From the NCBI GenBank assembly GCA_903954185.1, contig CAJBMM010000005.1, positions 1,768 through 65,767 of the forward strand: a stretch of 64,000 nt of DNA, read 5' to 3'. The translations under genes and the position numbers were made by a program. The notes under the pieces were generated by a model. It saw nothing but the letters and a program-made list of their open reading frames with translations, was not told where the DNA came from and made no database searches. Origin of the DNA: an uncultured Candidatus Berkelbacteria bacterium (lineage in GTDB: Bacteria > Patescibacteriota > UBA1384 > CAJBMM01). Positions 14,290 through 61,491 of the stretch are shown in pieces; the first letter of the stretch is position 1, and each line of letters begins with the position of its first letter.

Positions 14290-14290
14290 T

Positions 14291-42053: not shown

Positions 42054-43705
42054 TTCTCCAAGTATTCACGAACCTCTTTAATATCAAGCTGAATCTCATT
42101 TTTTCCCATCCAATTATTTTCGCGCACTGATGCAGCAACGTCTAATCGTGGCCAAGTTAATATATTTGGATGATTACCCAATTTGAAACCAACAAATGGT
42201 ATAACTGTGCCCTTTTGTTTTACCACACCTCGCAGATGTTTGCCACCACCCATTTTTTGCACCCTCTCTACCGTTACGTCGCTAATATAAAATAGTGGCT
42301 TGGCGTTTCCGTGGCCATACGGTTGCATCTTATTCAGTCTATGTACTAATTTTGCCTCAATTTCTGAAACTTCTAATTCAGAATCAAGTAATAATTGGCG
42401 ATTATTATCACCCGCAGATCGTAGTTTGGTAAATGCAATAATCTGTTGGCAAAATTTATCATAATTATCTACTTTAATAGTCAGTCCTGCAGCATAGTTA
42501 TGGCCGCCCCATTTATCCAACAGCAAAGTAAACTGACTCAAAATTTCTGGTAGTTCATATCCTGGTAAAGACCTAGCGCTACCCTTTAATAAATCACCAT
42601 CCTCGCAAAAGCAAATGACTGGCTTACAATATTTTTCCATCGCTCTTGCTGCTATTAATCCAACAATGCCAATACCCCATTCTTTGCTTTTAATAACAAT
42701 TATTGAGTTGTTGGTAAAATTTTCTGCTAAAATTTGCTCTTCTGATTGTTGAATAGCCTTCTCTAGTTCTTGTTGACGCAACAGATTTCGTTCATTTAAA
42801 TCATGAGCAATTTTGCTTGCTTGCTCTTTGCTTTCCGTAGTCAATAAGTGAAAAACATCTTCTGTATTTTTAGAAACCCTACCCGAAGCGTTTATTCTCG
42901 GACCAAGTATATATCCTACTTCATAGCTTGTAATTGTGCTCACATCAATACCGCTAACCTCTGCTAATGCACATAAACCAATATTTCGACTTTTGCACAA
43001 GACTTTCAATCCGTAATATGCTAATACCCTATTTTCATCAACCAATGGCACAATATCGCATATTGTCGCAAGCGCGACTAAATCTAATTGCCATAATAGC
43101 CATTGTTTTGATAACTGGGCCTGCTTTGTTGATAAGGATTCTAAAAACTTATAAACAATCGCAGTAGCGCATATTTCTGGAAATGGATATGTTGTACCCA
43201 CAAGTTTAGGATTGACGATAATCGCTTTCGGTAAATTTTCTTGCGGCTCGTGATGATCTAATATTATTACATCCATTTGTTTTGATCTGGCATAATCTAC
43301 TTCTTCAATTGCATTGGTTCCATTGTCAATTGTAATTAGCAATTTCACACCTAAATCGGCAAATTTATCAATTCCGTCTTTGCTCAAACCATAGCCAGAT
43401 TCACGACGTGGAATATGTACTTTTGCCTCAACCCCAATCTGTTTTAATCCAAGATATAATAACGCCGTCCCAGGTATACCATCTGCGTCATAATCACCAA
43501 ATAATCCAATTGTCCAATTATATTTAATTGCATCTAATACTTTATTTGTAGCTTCCTTTATGTTTGGTAACAGCTCAAATAAATGACGGTGTTTGTTAAA
43601 ATCTGGATCTAAAAATGCTTCATAGTCTTTTATGAATCTTTTAACCAATAGATCGCGAATTAAATCTTTATCTTTACGAGAAGCAATTATCCAATTTTTA
43701 TCCAT
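42050..43705 (-). CDS. recJ: single-stranded-DNA-specific exonuclease RecJ
   Basis: DHH family motifs GDYDADG, ILDHHE and the DHHA1 region. 551 aa. Confidence 0.9.
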   Translation of the reverse strand: MDKNWIIASRKDKDLIRDLLVKRFIKDYEAFLDPDFNKHRHLFELLPNIKEATNKVLDAIKYNWTIGLFGDYDADGIPGTALLYLGLKQIGVEAKVHIPRRESGYGLSKDGIDKFADLGVKLLITIDNGTNAIEEVDYARSKQMDVIILDHHEPQENLPKAIIVNPKLVGTTYPFPEICATAIVYKFLESLSTKQAQLSKQWLLWQLDLVALATICDIVPLVDENRVLAYYGLKVLCKSRNIGLCALAEVSGIDVSTITSYEVGYILGPRINASGRVSKNTEDVFHLLTTESKEQASKIAHDLNERNLLRQQELEKAIQQSEEQILAENFTNNSIIVIKSKEWGIGIVGLIAARAMEKYCKPVICFCEDGDLLKGSARSLPGYELPEILSQFTLLLDKWGGHNYAAGLTIKVDNYDKFCQQIIAFTKLRSAGDNNRQLLLDSELEVSEIEAKLVHRLNKMQPYGHGNAKPLFYISDVTVERVQKMGGGKHLRGVVKQKGTVIPFVGFKLGNHPNILTWPRLDVAASVRENNWMGKNEIQLDIKEVREYLEN

Positions 43706-43706
43706 T

Positions 43707-44564
43707 TTATTTTATGTATGCCTTACCCAAAACTCTTAAATCTATATATTCTTTAACTTTATCTGGATGTGATGTCAGTACAATTTTCGCTGCCTCTAAT
43801 TGAAGTTTACCGTCTCGCTGCGTGTTAATTAATAATTTAGGGCCAGTCTTACCAACTACCGAAACCTCAAAAGTGGTGACGCCCACTTCAAAATGATCAA
43901 TTGGTACGCCAATAATACTTTCGTATGCATTGGCAACTTCAACCACAATAGAAATAAAACTGGGACTGGCAACATTGTCACTCATTTTTACCGATATACC
44001 AGAAGTATCTATAATTAAAGGCACGGCATAGTCTTTATGGGGATTCATTATCGCATCGCCATCCCTGCCCACGATAAACTTTGTTTCACCACTTTGCCAA
44101 ATAACTGCAACATTTTTTTCGGCTAAATCAATTTTAATCGTATTTGGCACTCCACGATAAATTGCCACATCGGAAATTAGAGGCGATACTTCTTTTACTT
44201 TTCCTACTACTTTACCCGTAGGATATCGCCATAAGTTAAGATTAGTCGGCACAACTGCACTAATATTTTCTGAGCCAACATTTATGTTGCCAGTAATAAT
44301 AACTTCATTTACAGTAAAAATTGGGGAAAATAAAACCCAAGCAAACAAACCTATGCTTAATACAATAACTAAAACACGCATTATTGGACGCATAATAGAA
44401 GGCTTTTTCTCTACTACTTTCTCCGTTAGTCCGCTCATCTTAGCGTGCTTACGAATTGTGCCACGATTTATCGTTTTGTTTATTTTGGGAGTCGGTTGTG
44501 AAATTAATCGCATCAAAAATCCTAACTTATTTCGCCCAGATACCAAGATATTCAACTTTATCAA
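43707..44564 (-). CDS. ftsQ: cell division protein FtsQ/DivIB-like (TM + POTRA)
   Basis: Single TM helix VLVIVLSIGLFAWVLFSPIF, then a POTRA-like region. Position downstream of murB in the dcw cluster. Confidence 0.5.
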   Translation of the reverse strand: MIKLNILVSGRNKLGFLMRLISQPTPKINKTINRGTIRKHAKMSGLTEKVVEKKPSIMRPIMRVLVIVLSIGLFAWVLFSPIFTVNEVIITGNINVGSENISAVVPTNLNLWRYPTGKVVGKVKEVSPLISDVAIYRGVPNTIKIDLAEKNVAVIWQSGETKFIVGRDGDAIMNPHKDYAVPLIIDTSGISVKMSDNVASPSFISIVVEVANAYESIIGVPIDHFEVGVTTFEVSVVGKTGPKLLINTQRDGKLQLEAAKIVLTSHPDKVKEYIDLRVLGKAYIK

Positions 44565-45477
44565 CTATTTTAGCCCTGCCGCTATCTTTGATCGCTTTTG
44601 TAATTAATTCTTTCAATTGAAAAATTTCACTTGCTGATGCGTTTCCCAAGTTAACGATAAAATCTGGATGGTCTTTAGCAACAATCGCATCTCCAATATT
44701 CAATTTTTTATTAATTAGATCTTTCAGAAGATTGGCAATATTAACATCTTCTTCCGGCGCAATATGAAAGAAGCTACCGGCAGAGTGATGTATGTCAGTC
44801 AAATTATAGGGATAAAACTTTTTAGATGACTCTTGCATTCTCTCCATTATTTCATCGCGGCGCTGTTGACGCAACTGCAATAGCACCGTAAGTATTATAG
44901 GTTTTGGTTGCTGCCATTCTCGTAATTTTGAGGTATGTTCATGATAGTTCATCCAATCTACACTGACCTGTTTAAGCTGTGCAGGATGTTCATCATCGGG
45001 AGGTAAAATTAATGTAATGTTTTTCACAACTTCGTCAATATTGTGATTTGAGACAGATGAATTATTATACACCGCACCACCAATAGTGCCCGGAATTCCG
45101 TACCACCACTCCAGACCAGATAAACTACGCGAGGCAGATTCGGTGACAACCCTAGAAAAAGTACAACCACTATCAACCATAACTTGATTTTTCTCTGTTA
45201 AAAACGAGATTCTTGAAGTTATGTTATGAATGACCAATCCGGGAAACCCAGCGTCAGAAAAAACAATGCCGCTACCTCCCCCAATAACTAAATAAGGCAC
45301 CTTGTTTTTATGACAACAATCTATCGCAATAATTAATTTATCGATTTGATTCGTTTCATAAAAAAAATCTGCCACGCCACCCACTCTTAAAGTAGTGTAA
45401 TCCCGCATTGGTACACTTTGACGGACTTCTTCGCCAAGTGCATCCTCTAATTTTCGTTTAACCGCATCGTGATCCAT
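44527..45477 (-). CDS. murB: UDP-N-acetylenolpyruvoylglucosamine reductase
   Basis: FAD-binding TTLRVGGVADFF ... GGGSGIV and C-terminal MurB domain. dcw context. Confidence 0.85.
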   Translation of the reverse strand: MDHDAVKRKLEDALGEEVRQSVPMRDYTTLRVGGVADFFYETNQIDKLIIAIDCCHKNKVPYLVIGGGSGIVFSDAGFPGLVIHNITSRISFLTEKNQVMVDSGCTFSRVVTESASRSLSGLEWWYGIPGTIGGAVYNNSSVSNHNIDEVVKNITLILPPDDEHPAQLKQVSVDWMNYHEHTSKLREWQQPKPIILTVLLQLRQQRRDEIMERMQESSKKFYPYNLTDIHHSAGSFFHIAPEEDVNIANLLKDLINKKLNIGDAIVAKDHPDFIVNLGNASASEIFQLKELITKAIKDSGRAKIVDKVEYLGIWAK

Positions 45478-45582
45478 GCTGGCATTATAACATGATTATG
45501 CCCAATATGAGTACTACAAATATTGAAGGCGTAAAATTCAAATGCACAATTGACGAAGCCACGTTCAATGTGTAGTAATTAG

Positions 45583-46866
45583 TTACTTTAGTAATAATTG
45601 ACCGACTTTATAAACATCTGTGGCGCCCATGGTTAAAATTAATGTCCGGCTTTTAAGATAATTACGAACTTTATTAGCTGCTTCTTCGTTGCTCTGCGCC
45701 AATTCAACATCTTGCCCCAACTTAACCGCGCGATACATCAGTTCTTCACTTGTAGCTACCTCTACGTCTTCATCACTTTCTCTGCCAGGAACTTTATAAA
45801 CAGGCAATAATATAACTTTATCAGCAATATCTAGGGCGCTAACCGTTTCATCCATTTGATGCCTAAGCCGCCCCGCTTGATGAGGCTGGTAAATAAGTAT
45901 TAATTTCATATCAGGAAAAGTCTCTTTTGTTGCTTCTAACGTAGCCCTCAACTCACTTGCGTGATGCCCATAATCATCGTATATCTTTGTCTCCCCAACG
46001 CTACCTATATATTCGAATCGTCTTTCAATCCCAGGAAATGACTTTAGCGCGTCAATAATAATTGCATGAGGCACTCCTAATATACTTGCCATTTCATAAA
46101 CCGCAGTTGCATTTAACAAATTATGTTTTCCGGGCATATGTAAAGTTATACCTGCTAGTGGTTCGGTGTATTTTATTAGGGTACCATCAAAACCCTTGAT
46201 GATATTATGCGACATTGGATACTGGTAATTAATCACTAAAGCGTGCGTGGTTAGATTTACCAACTTTTTAAAAGCATTCTCATATTCTAATGCTGTTGGA
46301 TAAGTATCAAAGTGATCTTGTTCAACTGATGTAATAATTGCATGAGTAGGGTTATATTCCAAAAAACGACGCGCATATTCATCTGCTTCTATAACAAAAA
46401 TACTCTCATCACCCAACCTCGAATTTCCACCCCATTCCCCCAGTTTTGCGCCCAATGCCACGGTTGGATTAAGCCCTGCTTTCTCTAATACCCAACCCAT
46501 CATGGCTGTAGTAGTAGATTTACCATGCGTACCAGCAACAGCAATGCGAATGTTAGCGCGATTAAAAAAACGTGCCGCCACTTGTGCAAAGGATAAACAT
46601 GGAACATCAAATCTCTTAGCTGCTTCTATTTCAATATAACCACTCGAACTGTTAGTAATCGCTGCGCTATACCAAATTTCATTTATATCTTTAGAAACGT
46701 TTTCCGCACGATGCGAATTAAAAATTCGAATACCCATATTCTCCAATTTATGAAAATCATTTGTGCTGGAACTATCCGATCCGGTGACAACATAGCCATT
46801 ATTAATCGCAATATCTACTAGATACGCTGCGGCCGTACCACCGATTCCGATTATATGTACTTTCAT
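45583..46866 (-). CDS. murC: UDP-N-acetylmuramate--L-alanine ligase
   Basis: N-terminal HIIGIGGTAAAYLVDIAINNGYVVTGSD and P-loop GTHGKSTTTAM (Mur ligase). Confidence 0.9.
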   Translation of the reverse strand: MKVHIIGIGGTAAAYLVDIAINNGYVVTGSDSSSTNDFHKLENMGIRIFNSHRAENVSKDINEIWYSAAITNSSSGYIEIEAAKRFDVPCLSFAQVAARFFNRANIRIAVAGTHGKSTTTAMMGWVLEKAGLNPTVALGAKLGEWGGNSRLGDESIFVIEADEYARRFLEYNPTHAIITSVEQDHFDTYPTALEYENAFKKLVNLTTHALVINYQYPMSHNIIKGFDGTLIKYTEPLAGITLHMPGKHNLLNATAVYEMASILGVPHAIIIDALKSFPGIERRFEYIGSVGETKIYDDYGHHASELRATLEATKETFPDMKLILIYQPHQAGRLRHQMDETVSALDIADKVILLPVYKVPGRESDEDVEVATSEELMYRAVKLGQDVELAQSNEEAANKVRNYLKSRTLILTMGATDVYKVGQLLLK

Positions 46867-47984
46867 ATCTTTACCTCATTTAAAATAATTTCGGCCACGC
46901 TTTCCGCTGCTTTGATAGGATTCACAGTAGCAATATCAATCGACATTTTATGTAATTTATTTTTGTCTTCTGCAATATTTTTTACAGTATTAAATAGTTT
47001 TACGCCCGTAAGATCTGATTGTTCATAATATTGTGCGCCACCACACTTTTCTACATACCTCGCATTCGCCCTTGCATGATCGTTGGCACTAGTTGGAAGA
47101 GGTATAAGGATCGCAGGTAGCTTAAAAAAAGATAAATCAGTAATTGTGCCTGCGCCTGTACGCGATACGGCTAATTTACTTTTACCCATAATAACGGCTA
47201 ATTCTGTTTGGGATAAATATGCCACAGGATGATAAAGCAATCTTTCCCCCAAATTAAGTTTATTTTTCTCTCTTATTGCTTGATCAATATTATTTGCGCC
47301 CACTTGATGAACCACGTTGAAAAAATTTACATATCCGTTAAGTTCATCCCAAATCAATTGATTGATAGCTGCCGACCCCTGGCTTCCCCCTAAAATGAGT
47401 AAAGTATTTTCTTTAAGATTATACTTTTGAAATATTTTTGCTGATACTTCGCTTGAAACATTATGACGCTGAATTGGATTTCCTGTATAGATAGCGATTT
47501 TCCTAACCCAGCTAGGATAATATCTAACTGGAAAACCACAGCATAGTTTTTTAGCCATTCGCAGCAGCAGCCGATTAGTCAACCCTAAAACAATATCAGA
47601 TTCGTGAATTACTACCGGTATTCCCAATAATTTCGCTGAAAAAACTACGGGTGCAGAAACAAAACCAGATTTAGAAAAGACAACATCTGGCTTTATTCGT
47701 TTTAAAATTCGCAGAGATTGTAATACGCCCCCGATGGTTTTTAATATATCGCTAATATTGTCAACTGAAACGTAACGACGGATTTTTCCAGTATCAATTG
47801 GATAAAAATCTATATTGTTATCTCGAGCGACTATGTTCGCATAACCATCTATCATTCCAATCCAAGACAAATTAACATCGGGATGGTTTTGCAACACTTT
47901 CGCCACAGCTAGCGCTGGCTCTACATGCCCACCAGATCCACCACCTGTTATAACAATTTTGATTTTATTGTGATTTTGTTTCAT
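46863..47984 (-). CDS. murG: UDP-N-acetylglucosamine--N-acetylmuramyl-(pentapeptide) pyrophosphoryl-undecaprenol GlcNAc transferase
   Basis: GT28 N-terminal ITGGGSGGHVEPALA motif. 4-nt overlap with murC. Confidence 0.9.
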   Translation of the reverse strand: MKQNHNKIKIVITGGGSGGHVEPALAVAKVLQNHPDVNLSWIGMIDGYANIVARDNNIDFYPIDTGKIRRYVSVDNISDILKTIGGVLQSLRILKRIKPDVVFSKSGFVSAPVVFSAKLLGIPVVIHESDIVLGLTNRLLLRMAKKLCCGFPVRYYPSWVRKIAIYTGNPIQRHNVSSEVSAKIFQKYNLKENTLLILGGSQGSAAINQLIWDELNGYVNFFNVVHQVGANNIDQAIREKNKLNLGERLLYHPVAYLSQTELAVIMGKSKLAVSRTGAGTITDLSFFKLPAILIPLPTSANDHARANARYVEKCGGAQYYEQSDLTGVKLFNTVKNIAEDKNKLHKMSIDIATVNPIKAAESVAEIILNEVKI

Positions 47985-48038
47985 TTCACCTTTGAAAAAT
48001 ATTCTTTCAATAATTCATCATTATTAATTTTAAATTCA

Positions 48039-49148
48039 TCATTCTTTTTCTATATACCTTGATATATTCAATATTACTCCTGTTGCCATAAATAGTGCCA
48101 CCATTGCCGATCGGCCATAACTTACAAACGGAAGTGGCACACCCGTCATTGGAATCAATGAAGTCATGGAGCCAATATTAATTAATGCCTGGCCAACAAA
48201 CCATACAGTTATGCCAATTGCCAAAAGGGATCCAAACATATCTGGCGCAAATTTAGCAATTCTTATGCCTCTTACTCCAATAAATCCATAGACCAATATC
48301 AAAGCCGAAGTTCTGAAAAATCCCAGTTCTTCAACAATAATCGCAAATATTGAATCTGTATGCCCTTCTGGCAAAAAACCCCTCTTTTGTACACCTTTAA
48401 GGAAACCCTTTCCCCACAAACCACCTAAGCCAATAGCAATCTTTGCCTGTACTGCATGGTATCCTGCCCCTGTTGGTGAATTTTCGGCATTAATAAATGT
48501 TGTTAATCGTTGCAAACGATAAGGTGCAATTTTTATTGCCAAAACGACCATTCCAATTAAACTACCAATTACCGCCGATATTTGTGTTAGTTTTGCACCT
48601 CCGCATATGTACATTGCTAATGCGACAATCATCATCACCCCGAGTGAACCTAAATCTTTTTGGGCAAGCATTAAAGCACCAATTGCCGAAATAATTATTA
48701 CAAACCAACTAAATCCTTTCCAGGAATGCATCTCTTCACGTTTTTGGCTAAACCAGCTGGCAAGAAAGAGAATGAATGACAATTTTGCAAATTCAGATGG
48801 CTGAAAAGTTTGCCCTGCAATGCTTACCCACCGATGCGCGCCCTTTGTTTCACCCTTAGATAGCAAAAATACCGAAACTAATAATATTACAGTTATTAGC
48901 ATCCATGCAACTCCGTATTTTTGATATCGCCGATAATCAATTTGCTGAATGATTATCCAAGCAATAATACCAATAACGTACGAAATTAATTGTAGAAATA
49001 AATAATAAGTAGAATTCTCTGGATTATTTGTAGCAACGCGAGAAAGTTCTGCAGAAGCCGAGTACAACATTAATAAACCAAAAACCGACAACCCAAATAT
49101 GGCTATCGCTAATTGCATATCAATTTTACCTTTGTCCCGAAATCTCAC
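48039..49148 (-). CDS. ftsW: SEDS-family peptidoglycan glycosyltransferase FtsW
   Basis: About 10 TM helices, SEDS conserved motifs and dcw position between murD and murG. Confidence 0.85.
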   Translation of the reverse strand: MRFRDKGKIDMQLAIAIFGLSVFGLLMLYSASAELSRVATNNPENSTYYLFLQLISYVIGIIAWIIIQQIDYRRYQKYGVAWMLITVILLVSVFLLSKGETKGAHRWVSIAGQTFQPSEFAKLSFILFLASWFSQKREEMHSWKGFSWFVIIISAIGALMLAQKDLGSLGVMMIVALAMYICGGAKLTQISAVIGSLIGMVVLAIKIAPYRLQRLTTFINAENSPTGAGYHAVQAKIAIGLGGLWGKGFLKGVQKRGFLPEGHTDSIFAIIVEELGFFRTSALILVYGFIGVRGIRIAKFAPDMFGSLLAIGITVWFVGQALINIGSMTSLIPMTGVPLPFVSYGRSAMVALFMATGVILNISRYIEKE

Positions 49149-49164
49149 CTAAATCTCCAGTTTT

Positions 49165-49236
49165 TAGTCATTAGTCATTAGTCATTAGTCATTAGTCATT
49201 AGTCATTAGTCATTAGTCATTAGTCATTAGTCATTA
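49165..49236. repeat. (TAGTCAT)n heptanucleotide microsatellite, ~10 tandem copies, in the ftsW-murD intergenic space
   Basis: Direct reading: ttagtcattagtcattagtcattagtcattagtcattagtcattagtcattagtcattagtcatta. Shorter tracts of the same unit at 171..200 and 24305..24325. Related heptamer tracts at 57351..57412 and 58381..58410. Confidence 0.9.
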
Positions 49237-49310
49237 TAATGAATTATTCCATAATTCTGCACCTGTAGTGAGCTTGTCGAAACTATTCTGCATTCTGCAA
49301 TCTCCATTTT

Positions 49311-50750
49311 TCACCCATGAAGAGAATGCACCGATTTTTCAAACTGCCCTGCTCTATCATAAACATTTTTAAACATCCCAAAACTGGCACAACCGGGTGA
49401 AAATAGTACATAATCACCTTCGCTCGTTGATTTTTCCGCTAAACGAACTATTTCGTTCATACTATTGGTATTTTCTAAAATTATTTCAGGGGTAGTTGCT
49501 TTTTCTTTAGCAGACACATCTTCAATACATTGTTTGATTTCTTTTGCAGTATCACCCACTAACAAAACTTTAGATATTCCACATCTAATCAACTGTAACG
49601 CCAAATTTTCAAAGCCATATCCTTTAGAGCTACCCCCAATTATTACTAGCGGATTATTAACAGCATAAGCCTGAATAGCCGCTTCGGTGGAATCTGGGGC
49701 AGTAGAGAATGCATCATCTATCCAAATCCTTCCAGAGAACTTTCCAATTTCAACCAATCTGTGGGGTAAACCAGAAAAACCACCCAGTGTTTGCCTAATC
49801 GATTTATAAGACACCCCATAAGAAAGCGCTACCGCTATCGCTGCACAAATATTGGATAAGTTATGCTCACCCCGTAGCTTAATACTTCTGCTATTAATGA
49901 TTTTTTTATTGATTAACATCCCACTCTCAACTATCCATACGTTACCATTATATTTTTTTACAAAGACCCCAGGATCGACATATTTTCTAGTCGAAAACCA
50001 TGTAGTGCAAGCTTGGGTTAACATTGCAAAATTAACCGAGGTTAATGAATCGGCATTTAAAATTGCCAAATCTTTTTTATATTGGTGTTGCACGATATTA
50101 GATTTTGCCTCCACATATTCGTCTAATGTTTTATGATGATTAAGATGCTCGACTGTTATATCTTGTACTACAGCGACGTGTGGGCTTATTGACAAGCCTT
50201 GCAACTGAAAACTAGATAACTCCAGTACTGCTAACTCATTCTTATCAATATCTACCAACCAATCGATAAAAGACTCACCGATATTGCCTCCATATCGAAC
50301 TTTTTTGCCACCGTCTAACAACAATTTGTAAATGAGAGCTGTTGTAGTACTTTTACCTTTAGTGCCCGTAACAGCGACGGTATGATGCGCGTAATATTGT
50401 AAAAAAATCTCAGTTTGACTAGTCACCTCTACGCCATTTTTTTTAGCCTCTTGTATTTCTGCAGTTAGATACGGAATTCCAGGACTGCGCACAATAACAT
50501 CAACCTCACCCAATCCACTCAAATAATCAACACCGCCAATAATAGATGTTTCCTCTAATTTAGAAATTAGGAATTCGTCATTAGAAATTGCGGACTTTAT
50601 CTCACTCGCACTCTTTTTATCTCTAAGATCGATCAGCGCACCGTATTTCACCAAAAACCCGGCTACCGCTACCCCTTCTTTTCCGCATCCCAAAATTGCT
50701 ACGGTTTTACCCGAGAATCTTTTTTTCAGTTCATTATTAATATTCATCAC
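49311..50750 (-). CDS. murD: UDP-N-acetylmuramoylalanine--D-glutamate ligase
   Basis: N-terminal KTVAILGCGKEGVAVAGFL Rossmann region, Mur ligase P-loop GTKGKSTTT. Positional assignment between mraY and ftsW. Confidence 0.85.
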   Translation of the reverse strand: MMNINNELKKRFSGKTVAILGCGKEGVAVAGFLVKYGALIDLRDKKSASEIKSAISNDEFLISKLEETSIIGGVDYLSGLGEVDVIVRSPGIPYLTAEIQEAKKNGVEVTSQTEIFLQYYAHHTVAVTGTKGKSTTTALIYKLLLDGGKKVRYGGNIGESFIDWLVDIDKNELAVLELSSFQLQGLSISPHVAVVQDITVEHLNHHKTLDEYVEAKSNIVQHQYKKDLAILNADSLTSVNFAMLTQACTTWFSTRKYVDPGVFVKKYNGNVWIVESGMLINKKIINSRSIKLRGEHNLSNICAAIAVALSYGVSYKSIRQTLGGFSGLPHRLVEIGKFSGRIWIDDAFSTAPDSTEAAIQAYAVNNPLVIIGGSSKGYGFENLALQLIRCGISKVLLVGDTAKEIKQCIEDVSAKEKATTPEIILENTNSMNEIVRLAEKSTSEGDYVLFSPGCASFGMFKNVYDRAGQFEKSVHSLHG

Positions 50751-50804
50751 ATCTTAATGATACAGAAAAACCGGAACTAAATCGAGGCTCTGGCAAGTAC
50801 ATGC

Positions 50805-51191
50805 CTAAGGGTTTTCTAGCGTTACATCATGCGATAAAAAAGTCCCATTTAAAAATACTTCAGCATCATTTTGATTAACAAACCTTAAGATTGCATCATT
50901 ATTATTATAGAACTCGATATAATGATTGCCTGCACCATAACCAGTTATCTGGTAAGAACCGCCACCATCAGTCGTAGCAATATAGCCATCTAAAACCACC
51001 GTCAACCCAGATGCTGAAGCACCATTCTTATATTTTGCTTTTCCAGCGATGATAGTCGCGTCAATTGCAGAGGTAAGTTTGTCTGTAGTATCAGCAGACC
51101 CGTGCCTATTAGAGGTAATGAAATATATGCCAAATCCTAATAACAATACTACTAGAACGGCGATAATAGAAATATTTAGTTTATTCATCAA
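50805..51191 (-). CDS. small secreted/anchored protein with carboxypeptidase-regulatory-like beta-sandwich domain
   Basis: N-terminal hydrophobic segment IIAVLVVLLLGFGIYFI. GLTVVLDGYIATTDGGGSYQITGYGAGNHYIEF resembles the CarboxypepD_reg fold signature. 4-nt overlap with the upstream metalloprotease gene. Confidence 0.4.
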   Translation of the reverse strand: MMNKLNISIIAVLVVLLLGFGIYFITSNRHGSADTTDKLTSAIDATIIAGKAKYKNGASASGLTVVLDGYIATTDGGGSYQITGYGAGNHYIEFYNNNDAILRFVNQNDAEVFLNGTFLSHDVTLENP

Positions 51192-54142
51192 AGCACTTTC
51201 TTGCCAATAGTTGTTAACATTTTTTTCAAGAAAGGATCGGTCGTATTATTTACCCTTCTTTTATATTCATCTGGATACATATTAACCGCATGAAATACCG
51301 AAGCGAATAATTCATCATAGTTATCACGTGGGTGACCGCCAGATGCGTCTGGATCACGCATGAAACTGCTGTCTTTAAGTTTCCCAAAACAATCCTTGTT
51401 ATCATACTTTCCACACAAACTCCAAGCATTCTTCCAATATTGTGTAATTTTATTTGGTTGCAGGTTAACAGTGCAATATTTATTCTGGCCCTTATTCTTC
51501 ATCAAAACCGTATGCCCAAATTCATGAGTAAATACATCCTTAATCTCGAGAAGAGCGTTCCGATATACCAGATAATCGATAAATGAGCTCTCAGCAACAA
51601 TTTCATATTGCTTCACCTGGGGGTCAATTTGAATCACTGGCTCAATACATGACACGGCGTGTGCATTGCTTGTATAACTTTGCAGAATTTTCACCTGCGA
51701 AGGTAATTCCGGATAACGCTTTTGGTACGTTTTTGTCAACAGAGCATATTGTTCCTCAATAAGATTGGATACGTTTTCTAACAACACCTGATTGTCATTT
51801 AAATACTCATTTCTTCCAATCCAAAATAGATTTGCCAATAAACCCTGAGGCTTATGTTGTGATTCGAGTGATTCCCGGTAAATTCTTCCTATCTTTATAT
51901 CGTTTTCACCCCTCCAATTAGATTTTGTGTACAAATAAAGTGGTTCAACCTTCATTTTTTCTGGATAATAATTGTTTCCCCCAGCATATACAACAAAATA
52001 AAAACTACCAGCAGGGAGTTCAACTAATTTATCTAGTATAATGTGACCTTTATCGTCTGAGATATAATCCCTTATCTTCGTAATTTGATCAGTACCAGAA
52101 AGGTTCTCGACTACACGGTATAGAGTAAACGTGTCATTCTTGATCGGTATAACAATTCCTTCCGCATCTTTCACTGTTTGTAAAAGCACTATTAGATCGA
52201 CATTATATTTTTGGATAGGTGTATCTTCAACAGTTAAGGGGAGGGTGATCTCTTTTGTTTGATCATAGTTGTCAGAGAAACTAAATTCATCTGAAAAATC
52301 AGAAACGTATCCTGAATCGTCATCGTGATAAGTCGCATACACATGATAGAAGTACCCTGGGACTAGTTTTGTTTTATCATCACGATATTCATTACTAATC
52401 TCAAAATTACCATCAATATTATTAATTAATTCAATTATTCTGGTTTCCGCTTCCCACTCAGAGTTGCCAAATTTACGACGGTAAACTCTTACGTCGTAGC
52501 CGATCAAATCATTCTGATTTGTTTGAGGATCGATATATAATTTACCAGTAATTTTGTTAGGCTCTTTTTGCTCTGCTTTAATATCATTTTTTCCTAAATT
52601 CGTTGTATTCAAAACAGTAGTACCCCCAGATAACGAGTAATTAATTCGCCCAGAATCTGCACGAACTAAATCGTAAGCAGGGCTCACATTTTTGTCTGGG
52701 TTTAATTTGTAATTAACCTGGGTTGGTTGCAACAATTTTTTTGATACATCATACGAAGTGTTAAAACGGCAAGTTGAATTCGGGTCACGTTGGTCTGGCT
52801 GATAATTGCAGATTTGTATATTTTTACGTAAATCAACAGAATAATACGAATAATTTGTGTTAGCGGGCATGTAACCTGGATATTGCCATTGAAATCCAAA
52901 GTTTGAGCTTATCCACTGATAATTTAGATGATAAACTCCATCTGCTCCCGTTTTAACATTTTCATCGAAAATAGTTTTAGTTGCCGAACCTTGTGTAAAA
53001 TTAATATCAATACCAGGTAATGGCAGATCTGTACTAGTTAAATTCACATGCCCGCATATTAAGGGTGCCTGCAAGTAGACATCGAACAGGTTGCGACCTG
53101 CAACAATTGTAATTTCTTTCGTATATTTATAGTTATTATAATACTTAACAGTTAGCGTTGCTTTCCCAGTATGAATTGTAGAATTATTGTTAGTACCCGA
53201 AAAAGAATAGTTCCCCGCAAAGTCGGCAAGTCCATTTCCAACATAAGTATTGTCTGATTTATGTATTTTTCCGTCTTGAGTAAGTGTTACTTCTGCGCCA
53301 GGTAACCGATAATTCGTGCCTTTAACCGTTACCGTACCCATTACTACAAAGTTTGGTCCGATATCAAAGTTAGCATTTAATAAATCTTGATTTTCTCCAT
53401 TAGAATAGCCCGCATTACCTCTAAAACTTTGACTTACGTATTTCTCTTTACCATCTGGACTGGTGTATTCAACTAAGAATCGGTGCCCAGTAATATAATC
53501 AACCGTTGTCATAACAGCCTCATTAGACCATCCAAATGAGAGTGATTTCTTTGTAATTTTCCCCGTACGTAGCACGGTATTAGTATCAATATCAATGAGC
53601 TGGGTAGTAAAGCCTATGTATTGTCTTAAATCAGCATTCAGACAGCTAGAGGAAGAACACCTACCAGCATAAGCAGTAATTGCCTTGGGTGATGAATCCA
53701 TCATTATTGAGGCACGAATTCCTGTTGGGCCGTGTACTTGGTTTTCTCCATCACTAACTAAAACCGTCTCTTCATAGCGCGACATGCCTTGCCTGGTTAT
53801 TACTAATTTTGCAATGGCTTTTTTTGTATCAAATGTTAGGTGCGGAAAAGTAAACTTACCATCCGCGTCAGAAACAGCATTAAATTTGTTTCCGTTGCTA
53901 AAATCTAAACTCAATTGCGCTTTTACAACTGATTTATTGCTATTGCTAGTAGCGTCAAAATATTGCACTAAACCTGAATAGTCGGCCCCAAATTCTCCCT
54001 TTTCCCACAAAGGACATGTGACCAAAGCATCAGCGGCATGAACATTGCGCTGACTATAAATATGCTGAACCGTAAATATGGAAATAGATATTAAAACTAT
54101 CGAAAGTAGCACGTATTTAGTTGATATTCGATAACTGGTCAT
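51188..54142 (-). CDS. large secreted multi-domain protein (984 aa) with C-terminal HExxH zinc-metalloprotease motif
   Basis: Signal/anchor VLLSIVLISISIFTV. Several CarboxypepD_reg-like segments (GTVTVKGTNYRLPGAEVTL...). HEFGHTV near the C-terminus. Inserted between mraY and murD. Confidence 0.55.
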   Translation of the reverse strand: MTSYRISTKYVLLSIVLISISIFTVQHIYSQRNVHAADALVTCPLWEKGEFGADYSGLVQYFDATSNSNKSVVKAQLSLDFSNGNKFNAVSDADGKFTFPHLTFDTKKAIAKLVITRQGMSRYEETVLVSDGENQVHGPTGIRASIMMDSSPKAITAYAGRCSSSSCLNADLRQYIGFTTQLIDIDTNTVLRTGKITKKSLSFGWSNEAVMTTVDYITGHRFLVEYTSPDGKEKYVSQSFRGNAGYSNGENQDLLNANFDIGPNFVVMGTVTVKGTNYRLPGAEVTLTQDGKIHKSDNTYVGNGLADFAGNYSFSGTNNNSTIHTGKATLTVKYYNNYKYTKEITIVAGRNLFDVYLQAPLICGHVNLTSTDLPLPGIDINFTQGSATKTIFDENVKTGADGVYHLNYQWISSNFGFQWQYPGYMPANTNYSYYSVDLRKNIQICNYQPDQRDPNSTCRFNTSYDVSKKLLQPTQVNYKLNPDKNVSPAYDLVRADSGRINYSLSGGTTVLNTTNLGKNDIKAEQKEPNKITGKLYIDPQTNQNDLIGYDVRVYRRKFGNSEWEAETRIIELINNIDGNFEISNEYRDDKTKLVPGYFYHVYATYHDDDSGYVSDFSDEFSFSDNYDQTKEITLPLTVEDTPIQKYNVDLIVLLQTVKDAEGIVIPIKNDTFTLYRVVENLSGTDQITKIRDYISDDKGHIILDKLVELPAGSFYFVVYAGGNNYYPEKMKVEPLYLYTKSNWRGENDIKIGRIYRESLESQHKPQGLLANLFWIGRNEYLNDNQVLLENVSNLIEEQYALLTKTYQKRYPELPSQVKILQSYTSNAHAVSCIEPVIQIDPQVKQYEIVAESSFIDYLVYRNALLEIKDVFTHEFGHTVLMKNKGQNKYCTVNLQPNKITQYWKNAWSLCGKYDNKDCFGKLKDSSFMRDPDASGGHPRDNYDELFASVFHAVNMYPDEYKRRVNNTTDPFLKKMLTTIGKKVL

Positions 54143-55162
54143 TCAACCTCGGCCAAGTAATGCAACTACAATTCCAACCAATGCACAAACGCCACCGATA
54201 ACCCAAAAACGCATTGTAACCTTTGCTTCTGGCCAACCGATAGCCTCTAAGTGATGATGAAGGGGAGCGGAGAGAAATAATTTTTTTCCGCCATGTGTCT
54301 TCCTATATAAAATCTGGACTATTACCGATAAGGTTTCTGCAATAAACACCGCGCTAATGATTATCAATACAATAAAAGTGTTGGTAAGCATTGCAATAAC
54401 CCCCAATGTAGCCCCCAGTGCCAATGCGCCCGTGTCTCCCATAATAAATCTTGCAGGATAAATGTTAAACCACAAAAATGCCAAGAGTGCACCGACAACT
54501 GTTGCACAAAAACCTGCTATACCAAAACTGCCATTAACAAAAGCAATAATACCATAAGCCGAATATGCCAACGCCAATAACCCACCAGCCAACCCATCTA
54601 AGCCATCGGTAATATTCACAGCATTTGACATTCCTACTATTGCCAACACAAACAAAGGAATATACCAAACACCAATAGTAAAATCTCCTACGGCAGGAAT
54701 GTGAATACCATATTTCGTTCCCCATTCTAGTTTGCAATAAAACCAAAGCGCTCCAATAATAGCAATAATTAATTGCCAAATGAGCTTATGCCTTCCACGT
54801 ATCCCCCCACCATTTGGCCCAATACGAAAAATATTATAAAGATCGTCTGCCAAACCTAAAATAGCAGTAGTGAGCAATGTAAACATCAAAAGCCAGGTTT
54901 GGTTTCTAGTACTATTAAAAAGTAGGGACAAAATTAACACCGGAACCCACACTAAAATTCCCCCCATAGTCGGTACATTCTCTTTTCCTTTATGCAACTG
55001 ACTAAATACTGGGGTAGAACCTTGTCTAATTTTTTTACCAAGCTTATAACGATATAAAATATCGGTTAAAATAGGAGTGAACAACATTGCAAGCGAGAAA
55101 GAGGCAATTGTAAGCCAAAATAATTTTTGTAATGCTCTAAAATCAATGGCGATGGTTTCCAA
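54143..55162 (-). CDS. mraY: phospho-N-acetylmuramoyl-pentapeptide transferase
   Basis: Ten TM helices. Conserved NAVNITDGLDGLA and the DD/HHH catalytic motifs. Confidence 0.9.
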   Translation of the reverse strand: METIAIDFRALQKLFWLTIASFSLAMLFTPILTDILYRYKLGKKIRQGSTPVFSQLHKGKENVPTMGGILVWVPVLILSLLFNSTRNQTWLLMFTLLTTAILGLADDLYNIFRIGPNGGGIRGRHKLIWQLIIAIIGALWFYCKLEWGTKYGIHIPAVGDFTIGVWYIPLFVLAIVGMSNAVNITDGLDGLAGGLLALAYSAYGIIAFVNGSFGIAGFCATVVGALLAFLWFNIYPARFIMGDTGALALGATLGVIAMLTNTFIVLIIISAVFIAETLSVIVQILYRKTHGGKKLFLSAPLHHHLEAIGWPEAKVTMRFWVIGGVCALVGIVVALLGRG

Positions 55163-55222
55163 TAAATCTCCTTATTCTCTAACTATACTTTTATCTAAGT
55201 TATTGAGCAATAATTGAATGCA

Positions 55223-56962
55223 TTATTTATTAGGTGCTATATGAAAATAATTCTTTAATAAATAACTTGCAATTTGACCCCATAATGGAGCTGCCGAGCT
55301 TTCAGCGAATTCAACACCCTGCGGCTCTTCTAACGTAACAAACATGGCAAATTTTGGATCTTCTGCGGGAGCATAACCGGCAAATGACCCATTATTCTTA
55401 TTCTCAAGATATCCTTTACCTTCAGGATCTGCAATTTGTGCTGTTCCCGTTTTCCCTGCGATATTATATCCTGCTACGCCAGCCTTTTTTCCATGTCCTC
55501 GAACAACTACTTGCACCAACATTTCAGTTACTTCTTTTGCCACTTTTTCGCTAATAACATTACGAACTTGTACAGGTTGAAATTCCTCTATCTGCCCATT
55601 TGGCAATTCAATATTTGCAACGGAATACGGTTGCATGTAGCTGCCATTATTTGCAATTGCTGCATATGCCATTACCATTTGCAAAGGAGTAACCGTAACA
55701 CCTTGCCCAAAAGCAATAGTTGCAGTATTAACAGCTCTCCAATTCTGGATAGACGGAAGCTGGCCAGTACTTTCACCTTCTAAATCTATACCTGTTTTAT
55801 CACTAAAACCAAACCTAGAAAGATAGTCGTTGAATAACTCTCGACCAAGTTTATTACCTATATCAACCATACCAACGTTATCAGAATTTACCAACACGTC
55901 GGTCACAGATTCGCGCCCAAACGCTTTATCCTCTGCTGTATGAATATCATAACCATCAACATTAACCGATGCAGCATAAGTATTTTCATAATCTGCAGCC
56001 ATCTTTCCCGAATCTATAGCAGATGCAATAGTAATTGTCTTCATAACACTTCCGGGCTCGAAAGACCTAGATATGCACGGATTCTGAAATATGTTTTGTT
56101 CCCCAGATTTAACTTCGTTATATTTATTTGGATCAAATGTTGGCGCGTTTGCCATTGCTATTATCGCGCCGGTTTTAGGATTTACAATTATTACCGAAGC
56201 ACTTTTTGCAGTGAATTTGTTCATTGATTCAGCCAACATTTGCTCTACCGTTGCTTGAACATCTCTGTCGATTGTTAAAACAATATTAGCGCCTTTATTT
56301 TGCCCCCCTGAAGAATCGTTTAGATATACATTTCCAAATCCATCCCTAGTCGCTTTTTGGTCAGAGGCAAAACCTTGCAACTGATTATTATAATATCCTT
56401 CCACTCCGTATTGACCATTACCCTCTGCATTAACGAATCCTAATAGCGAAGCAGCTAGCGATCCCTCTGGATAACTACGAATATATTCGTTGCTCACACT
56501 TACTCCAGAAAAATTAAGGGATTTAATTTTCTCGCCCACTTCGATAGATAATTTTCTTGCCACAGGCGGTATATAAGCTTTATCATTATTTATTTTGTTA
56601 AATAATTCTTCTTTTTCAACACCAATTAAAGGGCTTAAACTATCTGCAACTTTTCTTACATCTAATATGTTACGTGGAATTACCTCTACCATCACTTTGG
56701 GTTCATTCAAAGCAATTTCAACATCGTCTTCGCCAGGCTGGCCATTAACCAAAATTTCGCCCCTATCTGGGTTAACCGTAATCGATACAGCTTGTTGCGC
56801 CCTAGATCTTGCTTCGGCTAAGCCATTACGAAGAACTGATTTTGTAAATAATTGTATTATAAGCCCAAATATAAAAACCAAAATCACTATCAAAATAACA
56901 CTGGCACGCTTAGACGTCCGGTATGTGCTATCAATCGCGCCAGTTAATCTATTTGGTTTCAT
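55223..56962 (-). CDS. ftsI: class B penicillin-binding protein / peptidoglycan D,D-transpeptidase FtsI
   Basis: N-terminal TM, dimerisation domain, transpeptidase motifs SVMKT (SxxK), SDN, KTGTAQ. Confidence 0.85.
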   Translation of the reverse strand: MKPNRLTGAIDSTYRTSKRASVILIVILVFIFGLIIQLFTKSVLRNGLAEARSRAQQAVSITVNPDRGEILVNGQPGEDDVEIALNEPKVMVEVIPRNILDVRKVADSLSPLIGVEKEELFNKINNDKAYIPPVARKLSIEVGEKIKSLNFSGVSVSNEYIRSYPEGSLAASLLGFVNAEGNGQYGVEGYYNNQLQGFASDQKATRDGFGNVYLNDSSGGQNKGANIVLTIDRDVQATVEQMLAESMNKFTAKSASVIIVNPKTGAIIAMANAPTFDPNKYNEVKSGEQNIFQNPCISRSFEPGSVMKTITIASAIDSGKMAADYENTYAASVNVDGYDIHTAEDKAFGRESVTDVLVNSDNVGMVDIGNKLGRELFNDYLSRFGFSDKTGIDLEGESTGQLPSIQNWRAVNTATIAFGQGVTVTPLQMVMAYAAIANNGSYMQPYSVANIELPNGQIEEFQPVQVRNVISEKVAKEVTEMLVQVVVRGHGKKAGVAGYNIAGKTGTAQIADPEGKGYLENKNNGSFAGYAPAEDPKFAMFVTLEEPQGVEFAESSAAPLWGQIASYLLKNYFHIAPNK

Positions 56963-56982
56963 ATTAAGTTATTATATGTGCT

Positions 56983-57321
56983 TTATTGGTTCACGCCAAG
57001 CTCGGTGGCACCCTGAGTCAAACCTAATCCTTCAGCTTTCTTTTTAGTCTCATTCGCAGTTCTATTCCTAGCTTCTTCTGCTTTTAAAACATCAAGTTGG
57101 TTTACAAGTTGCTCCTTTTTGTCGCTTATCCCACGAATTACTGCTTCACTTTGATTGGTTTTAGAAACATTCAAAATATACAAAGATAACAGCACCCCAA
57201 TAGCTAAGATAGATATCATTTTAAACGCATTTGGTCCGATATATGCCTGCGCACTAGAACTTCGTCTTTTCGTTCCGTGACGATAATATCGCGTACCAGA
57301 ATAAATAACTCGACGCCCCAT
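56983..57321 (-). CDS. ftsL: cell division protein FtsL-like (TM + coiled coil)
   Basis: Topology and position between rsmH and ftsI. Confidence 0.45.
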   Translation of the reverse strand: MGRRVIYSGTRYYRHGTKRRSSSAQAYIGPNAFKMISILAIGVLLSLYILNVSKTNQSEAVIRGISDKKEQLVNQLDVLKAEEARNRTANETKKKAEGLGLTQGATELGVNQ

Positions 57322-57411
57322 TTAACTCCCTCCTTGACTTTGTTGCTCGGTGATTAGGTGATTAGGTGATTAGGATTAATTCCTAGTCAACTAATGACTA
57401 ACGACTAACAA

Positions 57412-58332
57412 CTATATCTTTTCTGCCACTCGCATTTTGGCACTACGGCTACGTGGATTTCCTTTAATTTCTTTTTCGCCTGCAATGATTGGTGATTTAG
57501 TGATAATTTGTAAGGATGCCTTATGATTGCATTGGCACACTGGCATATTTGACGGACAAATACAGTCCAATGCCTCATTTCTAAAAAAGTTTTTAACAAT
57601 TTTGTCTTCGCCAGAATGAAAGCTAATAACTACAATTCTTCCGCCCTTAGCCAATAAATCTGTCGACTTTGCTAATCCAGCCATTAGTTGGCCAAACTCG
57701 TCATTTGCTTCAATTCGTAAAGCTTGAAAAACTTTGGTTGATGGGTTAATACCATGCTTATACGGAACCACCGATTCTATCAAAGTTCTTAATTGCTCCA
57801 CGGTTTTAATGCGATTTTTTTGTCTTTCGCTAATTATTTTATCTACTAAACGGTTTGTGCCCTCTTGACCATTCTCGGTAAATAATTGTTTTAGCTCTTT
57901 TGCCGTCCAATTATTGATAATATCTGCCGCACTCTTTCCGTTTACCCCAATTCGCATATCAAGTGCTCCGGTGCTTAAAAAACTTAAACCGTAGCTTGCG
58001 TCATCTAGTTGCACAGAGGAAACACCTAAATCCAATAGAATAAAATTAACAGATGAAAAATTGTTTTCGGCAGCTATTTGATCAATTTCGCCAAACATCC
58101 CTTTGGCCAATATAAGACTTGGATTGCAAATATGGTTTTTGCAATAATCTAAAGCTTTTTCATCTTTATCAATACCAAGATATTTCCCTGAATTTCCGAT
58201 GATATTTAACAGTGCCAAAGCATGACCACCAAAGCCAATTGTTCCGTCGATAACGCTATCGCCTTCTCGTAAATTACTTTGTTCTATAACGTGTTGTAAA
58301 AGTACTGGAATATGTGGGGAGTTATCTTGCAT
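57412..58332 (-). CDS. rsmH: 16S rRNA (cytosine1402-N4)-methyltransferase
   Basis: HIPVLLQHVIE...DGTIGFGGHA SAM-binding motifs of RsmH/MraW. Confidence 0.9.
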   Translation of the reverse strand: MQDNSPHIPVLLQHVIEQSNLREGDSVIDGTIGFGGHALALLNIIGNSGKYLGIDKDEKALDYCKNHICNPSLILAKGMFGEIDQIAAENNFSSVNFILLDLGVSSVQLDDASYGLSFLSTGALDMRIGVNGKSAADIINNWTAKELKQLFTENGQEGTNRLVDKIISERQKNRIKTVEQLRTLIESVVPYKHGINPSTKVFQALRIEANDEFGQLMAGLAKSTDLLAKGGRIVVISFHSGEDKIVKNFFRNEALDCICPSNMPVCQCNHKASLQIITKSPIIAGEKEIKGNPRSRSAKMRVAEKI

Positions 58333-58415
58333 TGCAGACCTTTGCGATTATTATTTTGCCCCCAGTTTTCAATTTTTAATTTCTAGCGACTAGAAACTAA
58401 AAACTAACAACTCTA

Positions 58416-58847
58416 CTAAACTCCAAAATCAATTAACTTTTCGGCGATTTCATCACTGTGTGATTCTACATCGGCCTGTTGTTCTGCCCAAACTTTGTTA
58501 TCCCAAACTTCAATGCGATTAAATAACCCTGCAACGACCACGTTGGTTTTTAGTTTGGCAAAATCACGTAAATAGGCCGGCAATACTACCCGCCCTTGTT
58601 TGTCTAATTCTATTTCCATTGCTCCTGCCAACATTAATCTCGAAAACTGTCTGGCATCTTTTTGGCTTAATGGTAAATCGGAAAGTCTTTCAATTAAAGA
58701 TTGCCATTGGGACTTAGTATAAATAAACAAACAACCATCTAAACCACGCGTAACTATTGCACCTTCGGTTAAAACACTGCGAAATTTAGCAGGAATTTGT
58801 AATCTGCCTTTTTCGTCTATGTTGTGATTATATTGTCCAATAAACAT
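58416..58847 (-). CDS. mraZ: transcriptional regulator MraZ
   Basis: Duplicated MraZ domain with DEKGRLQIPAKFR and DKQGRVVLPAYLR motifs. First gene of the dcw cluster. Confidence 0.9.
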   Translation of the reverse strand: MFIGQYNHNIDEKGRLQIPAKFRSVLTEGAIVTRGLDGCLFIYTKSQWQSLIERLSDLPLSQKDARQFSRLMLAGAMEIELDKQGRVVLPAYLRDFAKLKTNVVVAGLFNRIEVWDNKVWAEQQADVESHSDEIAEKLIDFGV

Positions 58848-59287
58848 CTATCGCACCTTCGGCTTGAGTGCAAAATGCAAAGTGCAAAATGCATAATTAT
58901 GGAATTTTTTGAAAATTGAAAATTGAAAATTGAAAATTCTGTTATATATGGCCTCTCCAACGGCCAACTGGAATCTTTATACAAGAAACCAAGCTGACCG
59001 TTGGATCTAAATTTCGGCCTTTTGCCCCTCCTTAAAGCCCCATAACAAGCGAGACGCTCGTAAATAGGGTGGCTTACAAAGTGTCTGCGGCTAATAAAAG
59101 TTATCCACAGGGTTATCCACTTTTCCCCACTTTGCCCCACTTTTAAGGATCTAGATTGATATTAGCCCCACATCTACCCACTGTCAATACAAACAAAACC
59201 CGAAAGTTTGCATAAGGATGTGCGAAAAGCACCCAATAAATTGAGCACTTCGCCTTTATAATGAGCATTTCAACTCACATACATAGT

Positions 59288-59435
59288 TGTTATTCCTGCG
59301 CATGCAGGAATCTACATAATAAATCGGATAACTGGATTTCTGCCCATTCGACAAGCTCAGGGTCTCTAGTGCAATCGATTGACCTTCGCCCGTCTCGTTC
59401 GAGGCGAACAGCCGAGGTGGACAGGAATGACAGTG
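59288..59435. repeat. dispersed palindromic repeat family A, long composite copy
   Basis: attcctgcgcatgcaggaatctacataataaat ... cattcgacaagctcagggtct ... gacaggaatgaca. Same modules as 19249..19325 and 29667..29745. Confidence 0.75.
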
Positions 59436-59453
59436 AGTAAGTTTAAAAAATAT

Positions 59454-60806: not shown

Positions 60807-60989
60807 AAAATATTTAAATAATCATTTAATCGACTTATTAAGATTGAGTATACCACAATTAGGATTCTTGCACTAATAGCTAATGTGCCCACACGCATAG
60901 TTTTTGATCTTAATTATCAGCCGAAACGGCGCGCCCATCACCTGGGTGCGCCGTTTCACTTCACATTGAAAATATATTGATTCTAATTC

Positions 60990-61436: not shown

Positions 61437-61491
61437 ATTCCCATCCTATCCAAAATTATAATATTCTAATAACACATTAAGTATAAAACAA

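Follow-up and report, generated by a model that had tools for sequence, protein, structure and literature searches.

The cluster of division and cell-wall genes (dcw) of Escherichia coli is a tightly packed array on one strand, in the order mraZ-rsmH-ftsL-ftsI-murE-murF-mraY-murD-ftsW-murG-murC-ddlB-ftsQ-ftsA-ftsZ. The ancestral cluster is described as comprising 17 genes, murA and murB among them, and its later history as mainly one of gene loss or relocation, likely without gene gain, on the basis of a set of genomes outside the Candidate Phyla Radiation (CPR) (PMC8871954). The stretch of 64,000 nucleotides (nt) analysed here, which as a whole is called the window, comes from an uncultured Berkelbacteria bacterium and holds on its minus strand a cluster with the same collinear and tightly packed arrangement mraZ-rsmH-ftsL-ftsI...mraY-murD-ftsW-murG-murC-murB-ftsQ. 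It lacks murE, murF, ddl, ftsA and ftsZ, continues after ftsQ with recJ and radA, has alr and recO upstream and, between mraY and murD, carries a two-gene non-dcw cassette whose open reading frames (ORFs) encode 984 and 128 amino acids (aa) and are called X984 and X128. The interpretation that we favour, with moderate confidence, is that of a dcw cluster typical of its clade within Patescibacteria, with its murF slot empty, which holds at a variable junction a cassette for an exported gluzincin similar to lethal factor, PPEP and MtfA, acting on a surface protein.

The described peptidases closest to X984 are anthrax lethal factor (LF), the PPEPs and MtfA, whose substrates are proteins or peptides and not peptidoglycan; the aminopeptidase MtfA (peptidase M90; PDB 3dl1 and 3khi) resides in the cytoplasm and is under the control of Mlc. 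X984 shares with LF (MEROPS M34; Pfam ATLF, PF07737) an HEFGH motif on a helix and a downstream Glu in a helix of the type E-x-F-A-x-A-F, and with the M34 and PPEP enzymes a secreted or surface location, in its case a predicted one. Nevertheless, it scores below the ATLF threshold, it has a longer spacer containing (L/F)KDSSF...GHPxDN, and it shows a His where LF has a Tyr, while both LF and PPEP lack its fusion to a beta stalk of about 700 residues and its pairing with a small membrane protein. Unlike MtfA, with which no match is found at the sequence level, X984 is predicted to be exported. The M34 and PPEP enzymes occur in Firmicutes, whereas the X984 family is found in metagenomic contigs of Patescibacteria type. 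A further point of comparison is offered by surface proteins made of CarboxypepD_reg repeats (PF13620), a non-catalytic transthyretin-like sandwich; X984 has one significant domain of this kind, and the rest of its beta region matches no family. As regards physiological role, the PPEPs (PPEP-1, -2 and -3 in M34) are secreted and cleave surface adhesins of the bacterium itself, some of their homologues carry additional wall- or surface-binding domains, and conserved residues contact the P1 and P1' prolines and the S-loop (PMC8610288).

The cassette and the parts of its first product are placed as follows.

51188-54142, minus strand: X984, 984 aa, first gene of the cassette, its ATG directly after the mraY stop
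54056-54133, minus strand: X984 residues 4-29, hydrophobic helix at the N-terminus, putative signal peptide or anchor (hydropathy and model helix)
51878-54001, minus strand: X984 residues 48-755, all-beta region in which one CarboxypepD_reg domain lies (Pfam, and DSSP of a low-confidence model)
51191-51796, minus strand: X984 residues 783-984, alpha/beta zincin-like domain, similar to LF, PPEP and MtfA
51512-51526, minus strand: X984 residues 873-877, HEFGH motif (H873, E874, G876, H877), invariant and aligned with the HEFGH of anthrax LF
51311-51337, minus strand: GHPRDNYDE of X984 (G936-H937-P938...E944), proposed region of the third zinc ligand, with G936 and E944 invariant
50805-51191, minus strand: X128, 128 aa (127 aa when counted from the ATG), the cassette's second gene, overlapping the end of X984

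The identity of the C-terminal domain, which matches no Pfam family, is best approached through its conserved residues. An alignment of nine remote homologues (20-29% identity) leaves no column invariant except H873, E874, G876, H877, G936, E944, A947 and S948, and the motif of the family can be written (L/F)KDSSF...GHPxDN..E(L/F)(F/Y)ASAF. The HEFGH lies within a helix predicted at residues 863-883 by a low-confidence model. When a profile of the domain was compared with the sequences of the PDB, LF came first, with an E-value that went from 0.035 with seven sequences to 0.0017 (21.8 bits) with nine, and the six top matches were all anthrax LF. In the corresponding hidden Markov model (HMM) alignment E944 ('DELFASVF') falls on the Glu of the LF segment 'NEAEFFAEAF', which we take to be E735, the third zinc ligand of LF. 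Foldseek also ranked LF and MtfA first, with matches that are not significant, and the likeness to PPEP is found at the level of the fold only. By these sequence comparisons the domain best matches a putative gluzincin of the LF kind, too divergent to be filed under M34/ATLF. The same domain is fused to CarboxypepD_reg repeats elsewhere, in a protein of 1142 aa with six repeats (locus L087) and in the homologues P0006 and P0009, which indicates that a beta stalk plus a putative zincin head may be a recurrent design. The initial annotation had spoken of a pair of metalloproteases; only X984 carries an HExxH motif, and what stands of that description is the HEFGH at 873-877 in a zincin-like domain, with an invariant HExxH and a downstream Glu.

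The remainder of X984 was laid out from a full-length AlphaFold model with a mean confidence (pLDDT) of 44, used for the layout of secondary structure alone, in which residues 48-755 form strands only and the alpha/beta domain occupies 783-984. An N-terminal stretch (residues ~5-30) is the only one to exceed a mean Kyte-Doolittle value of 1.6; R5 and K9 stand ahead of it and VHA-AD comes after it, and this single hydrophobic stretch with its basic n-region is consistent with a signal peptide or signal anchor. CarboxypepD_reg gives one match above threshold, at residues 66-134 (35.8 versus 32.3 bits), two further stretches being weak and visible only when E-values up to 10 are admitted, and self-BLAST reveals no internal sequence repeats. 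Repeated domains of this type, as initially annotated, are thus plausible from the model, with one match passing the Pfam threshold. X128 likewise has a single N-terminal hydrophobic helix; the CarboxypepD_reg likeness claimed for it amounts to a sub-threshold match (E = 0.0086), and an hhalign comparison of the X128 partner family with the X984 family is weak (E = 0.11). As a separate observation, C43 and C363 of X984 (54014-54016 and 53054-53056) are invariant in all five full-length members, which suggests that the stalk holds a disulfide or a metal site that has been conserved; neither Cys has a lipobox context.

From these elements a working scheme can be proposed. X984 would be exported via Sec, its N-terminal helix being either retained as an anchor or cleaved, and the long beta stalk, with at least one CarboxypepD_reg sandwich, would hold a head with zinc endopeptidase activity at a distance from the membrane. 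In this head H873, H877 and E944 are the proposed zinc ligands and E874 the proposed general base; export, zinc binding and proteolysis are all read from sequence. X128 would be a bitopic membrane protein of small size that carries one small beta domain; translational coupling would keep its amount in a fixed ratio to that of X984, with which it probably forms a complex as an anchor, chaperone or regulator. The cassette would be transcribed together with the dcw genes. The substrate would be a surface protein, either the bacterium's own or that of a host, rather than peptidoglycan, since the PPEPs offer an analogy and no signature of a peptidoglycan hydrolase is present. A role as a surface protein-endopeptidase is consequently our best guess for X984, by analogy.

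The cassette is rare. An exhaustive phmmer search of 1.84 billion representative proteins yielded 10 proteins matching X984 at E <=1e-3. In a word-indexed protein search X984 found only itself and an alignment of the C-terminal domain found nothing; a scan of metagenome contigs with the single X984 protein was also empty, and the same scan with a reduced alignment gave four loci, which have the C-terminal domain only, in other architectures. Homologues of the full-length type (P0002-P0005) are 21-26% identical over their whole length and up to 34% over matched stretches, and P0006 and P0008-P0010 match only residues ~775-984. The genes for P0002, P0004 and P0005 are each followed, with a 4-nt overlap, by a small ORF (153, 172 and 145 aa, respectively), and these small ORFs, at loci L084, L085 and L086, align with X128, having an N-terminal hydrophobic helix and then a short beta-type domain. 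None of these three contigs contains dcw genes. The neighbours of the cassette are SmpB, Fic and GIY-YIG in L084, Wzz, a type IV secretion system pilin and DUF4012 in L085, and RecG, a ComEA-like gene and GT4 glycosyltransferases in L086. Because the three homologous pairs occur in unrelated, non-dcw contexts, X984 and X128 appear from sequence as a conserved cassette of two genes, predicted to be translationally coupled, whose location in a dcw cluster is specific to this organism. No paralogue of either gene is present in the window.

The genes into which the cassette is inserted were assigned by Pfam and NCBIfam scans of the ORF listing, and run in the minus-strand order mraZ-rsmH-ftsL(like)-ftsI-mraY-X984-X128-murD-ftsW-murG-murC-murB-ftsQ-recJ-radA, with the following positions.

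58416-58847, minus strand: mraZ (Pfam MraZ, E = 3e-40)
57412-58332, minus strand: rsmH, also mraW (Pfam Methyltransf_5, E = 4e-89)
56983-57321, minus strand: FtsL-like small bitopic protein, 112 aa (position, one hydrophobic transmembrane helix, weak NCBIfam FtsL_Actino match, E = 0.0012)
55223-56962, minus strand: ftsI, class B penicillin-binding protein (Pfam PBP_dimer and Transpeptidase)
54143-55162, minus strand: mraY (Pfam Glycos_transf_4; TTG start with AAGGAG ahead of it)
49311-50750, minus strand: murD (NCBIfam TIGR01087, 336.8 bits, above the cut-off of 212)
48039-49148, minus strand: ftsW (Pfam FTSW_RODA_SPOVE, E = 3e-92)
46863-47984, minus strand: murG (Pfam Glyco_transf_28 N- and C-terminal domains)
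45583-46866, minus strand: murC (NCBIfam TIGR01082 as best match, 324.6 bits, just below the curated cut-off of 335)
44527-45477, minus strand: murB (Pfam FAD_binding_4 and MurB_C)
43707-44564, minus strand: ftsQ (Pfam POTRA_1 of FtsQ type, E = 9e-6; NCBIfam FtsQ, E = 1e-4)
42050-43705, minus strand: recJ (Pfam DHH, DHHA1 and RecJ_OB)
40743-42053, minus strand: radA, also sms (Pfam zinc ribbon, AAA_25 and ChlI/Lon_C)

This order, from mraZ to recJ, bears out the one initially annotated, FtsL being recognized by its position, its topology and the weak HMM match; the ORF has no Pfam match, and ORFs of equal size occupy the same position in relatives. For murB the NCBIfam models of that name rank first yet stay below their cut-offs (NF010480, E = 5e-54, 183.2 versus 259 bits; TIGR00179, 138.5 versus 144.5 bits). 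The possibility that the Mur ligases of the window were mislabelled MurE or MurF was ruled out, their top NCBIfam matches being MurC and MurD, and in the same scans none of the ORFs of at least 280 aa in the 64 kb corresponds to murE, murF, ddl, ftsA or ftsZ, in agreement with the absence of these five genes already reported for the cluster. With regard to spacing, ftsI and mraY are separated by 60 nt, the TGA stop of mraY abuts the ATG of X984 with a gap of 0 nt, and 54 nt lie between X128 and murD. A scan for promoters and terminators returned sites no more numerous than in shuffled sequence. Since packing is this tight, with no extra terminator signal, co-transcription of X984 and X128 with the wall genes is plausible. 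To this extent the proposed co-regulation with wall synthesis holds; the link is not a conserved one, however, the cassette lying outside dcw clusters in the three other genomes in which it was found. Upstream of the cluster, a gap of 606 nt (58848-59453) between the aminoacyl-tRNA synthetase (aaRS) gene and mraZ has no Rfam match and is presumably its promoter or leader region.

In order to place the cluster within its lineage, MraY was used as a query against one genome per GTDB species and the 80 closest loci were retained, their ORFs being annotated from BLAST comparisons with the proteins of the window and with those locus proteins that Pfam and NCBIfam had identified. The MraY proteins of these loci, nearly all of which are labelled Patescibacteria/CPR (Berkelbacteria, "Saccharibacteria", Uhrbacteria and others), the rest coming from uncharacterised metagenome-assembled genomes, are 49-64% identical to that of the window. 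Sixteen of the 80 share the cluster, at a mean amino-acid identity of 36-44%, and their consensus is recO-alr-x-(class II aaRS)-mraZ-rsmH-ftsL-ftsI-murF-mraY-murD-ftsW-murG-murC-murB-ftsQ-recJ-radA. In none of the examined stretches of these 16 syntenic loci are murE, ftsA or ftsZ found; ddl follows murB in three of them only (L007, L010 and L058, by Pfam), and ftsQ-recJ(-radA) ends the cluster in the nine loci where the end is visible (L005, L010, L013, L014, L016, L022, L026, L028 and L058). The gene murF, in turn, separates ftsI from mraY in 15 of these 16 loci and in 20 of the 80 overall, and ftsI directly precedes mraY, without murF, only in the window, L016 and L030. All departures from the canonical cluster other than the loss of murF and the cassette are therefore common to distant Patescibacteria relatives, and so the absence of murE, ftsA, ftsZ and ddl and the junction ftsQ-recJ are not novelties of this genome. 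What had been presented as compaction is mostly an old lineage trait (absence of murE, ftsA and ftsZ, usual absence of ddl, recJ after ftsQ); within the clade, the only unusual absence is that of murF beside mraY. No specific account of how dcw genes are organised in Saccharibacteria, Berkelbacteria or CPR came out of a literature search.

Two features of these relatives deserve to be recorded beside the comparison. The MurF of the clade is short (356-406 aa), consists of the middle and C-terminal domains of a Mur ligase without the N-terminal one, and scores 241 bits against TIGR01143, under the cut-off of 288.6; examples are L004:4041-5195, L010:8904-10001 and L026:8944-10014, and there are 17 other such loci. 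Moreover, the dcw cluster belongs to a longer block of conserved order, recO-alr-x-(class II aaRS)-dcw-recJ-radA, whose outer parts lie in the window at 59454-63329 and 40743-43705 and which is also present in L005, L010, L014, L016, L026, L028 and L058, though at about 40% identity; its class II aaRS, of 450 aa, bears the JGI name glycyl-tRNA synthetase.

The junction downstream of mraY is variable in the phylum. Across the 80 loci the next gene is ftsW in 26, murD in 19 and another gene in about 27. In close relatives these other genes include uppS (L016 and L030) and one coding for a Cu-oxidase_4/YfiH(PgeF)-like protein (L006, L009 and L012); L025 has an Asp/Glu racemase gene (murI), and in L033 mraY and murD are separated by a gene for a protein with a PEP-utiliser domain (L033:6659-7831). 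An insertion at this point is thus not exceptional, and the cargo is, because no homologue of X984 or X128 occurs in any of the 80 dcw loci; the check on related genomes which the initial annotation had called for consequently gives no sign of a trait shared by the lineage. All three loci without murF between ftsI and mraY carry an insertion right after mraY (uppS in L016 and L030, X984/X128 in the window), as do only about one third of the loci with murF, numbers which are too small to be given meaning. Other additions to these clusters include a PMT-type glycosyltransferase between murG and murC (L012:12477-13682 and L017:15399-16637) and a LytR-CpsA-Psr (LCP) protein (L013:16455-17456). At L029:7184-10186 a tandem-duplicated PilB-type ATPase of 1000 aa directly follows mraY; it was considered as an X984 homologue and rejected on account of this identity.

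Elsewhere in the window, the minus-strand gene at 225-3218 encodes a PilB/T2SSE-type ATPase of 997 aa, extended at its N-terminus by about 580 residues that include an MshEN domain, and three ORFs of 953, 588 and 710 aa (7093-9954, minus; 5310-7076, minus; 30935-33067, plus), two of which adjoin this pilus ATPase region, have no Pfam match. At 13879-15187 (plus) the gene for a PspC-domain protein precedes that for a LiaF-like membrane protein, a pair that resembles a module for envelope stress, and at 15700-16260 (minus) an aminoglycoside-2''-adenylyltransferase-like gene (PF10706, E = 8e-29) lies beside a tRNA-Trp in this bacterium of small genome. A class A penicillin-binding protein with transglycosylase and transpeptidase domains, followed by C-terminal Big_7 and fn3-like domains, is encoded at 36139-39003 (plus), at a distance of 0.8 kb from where the conserved block ends.

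The favoured reading has to be weighed against others, the nearest of which sees in X984 a peptidase acting on peptidoglycan, for example a stem-peptide endo- or carboxypeptidase, which would work with wall synthesis and perhaps compensate for an altered stem peptide in a genome whose cluster has lost murF. The tight operonic packing between mraY and murD agrees with it, as do the predicted export with a conserved HExxH...E, the insertion found downstream of mraY at all three loci without murF upstream of it and the wall-precursor genes (uppS, YfiH/PgeF-like, murI) that fill the same junction in relatives. In fact, nearly all the mraY-murD insertions in relatives are genes for peptidoglycan precursors, which could speak for a wall role here as well and counts against a surface-protein substrate. 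Nevertheless, neither X984 nor X128 matches any peptidoglycan-hydrolase family in Pfam or NCBIfam, M23, M15/VanY, M14, NlpC/P60 and amidase domains being absent even at E up to 10; the nearest relatives in sequence and fold are LF, PPEP and MtfA; the CarboxypepD_reg sandwich implies no carboxypeptidase activity; and the cassette lies away from wall-synthesis genes in three other genomes. The peptidoglycan peptidase role put forward in the initial annotation is therefore unsupported, and we consider it improbable. Somewhat less probable still would be a bolder proposal, that of a CPR-specific, division-coupled surface protease module within the dcw cluster, whose LF/PPEP-like zincin and membrane partner would be produced in time with growth of the wall; the module might cleave proteins of the surface or of host attachment, or else some non-canonical component of the wall, and so link division of the episymbiont to detachment or to remodelling of the envelope, murF having been moved or lost.

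Further points weigh against the active LF-like peptidase that we favour. X984 itself has no match to ATLF even at E up to 10, and one of seven family members only reaches that model, at E = 0.06. In the alignment with LF, H937 stands opposite the Tyr of 'SYGRT', and this Tyr (of 'SYGRTNEAE') is presumably catalytic. Moreover, the full-length homologue P0003 lacks the C-terminal domain altogether and P0002 has a degenerate HEAAH and lacks the GHP...E..AS motif, so that catalysis may not be essential to the family. These two homologues also speak for a non-enzymatic role, in which X984 and X128 would form a surface adhesin or stalk, the zincin-like fold being reused for binding and the dcw insertion being a neutral one that borrows a strong growth-linked promoter. 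About 700 beta-rich stalk residues, with weak CarboxypepD_reg, SdrD_B and SpaA-like matches in homologues, are typical of adhesins, the context of the cassette differs at each locus, and large extracellular proteins of CPR bacteria have been proposed to serve cell attachment (review, PMC10221324). The invariance of the C-terminal domain, however, is of the catalytic type, H-E-x-G-H plus a Glu in nine homologues, which is difficult to account for unless metal is bound or a reaction catalysed, and the adhesin is given as low a probability as the peptidoglycan enzyme. It might also be supposed that the assembly is chimeric or that the long ORF is spurious, the sequences being from metagenome assemblies and X984 nearly an orphan. 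However, mraY-X984-X128-murD recurs with an identical protein in contigs from at least four independent runs and assemblies, the two-gene layout is repeated in homologues elsewhere, and the GC, GC3 and codon usage of X984 and X128 are those of the flanking genes, so that an artefact is effectively refuted and hardly credible. The same agreement with the flanks led to the rejection of a recent horizontal transfer.

As regards the organism, the "missing" wall genes do not demonstrate an unusual cell wall, being mostly a trait of the lineage. The dcw cluster of Patescibacteria is rather to be seen as a conserved scaffold whose junctions, above all the one downstream of mraY, readily take accessory envelope genes, and the dcw cluster of one lineage has accepted a rare cassette for a putative exported zincin, which represents a modest advance and not a new principle. 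The cassette itself defines a small uncharacterised family, with about 10 representatives in a clustered set of 1.84 billion proteins. If active, X984 would extend the LF/PPEP type of surface protease to CPR bacteria, whose host-attachment biology is poorly understood.

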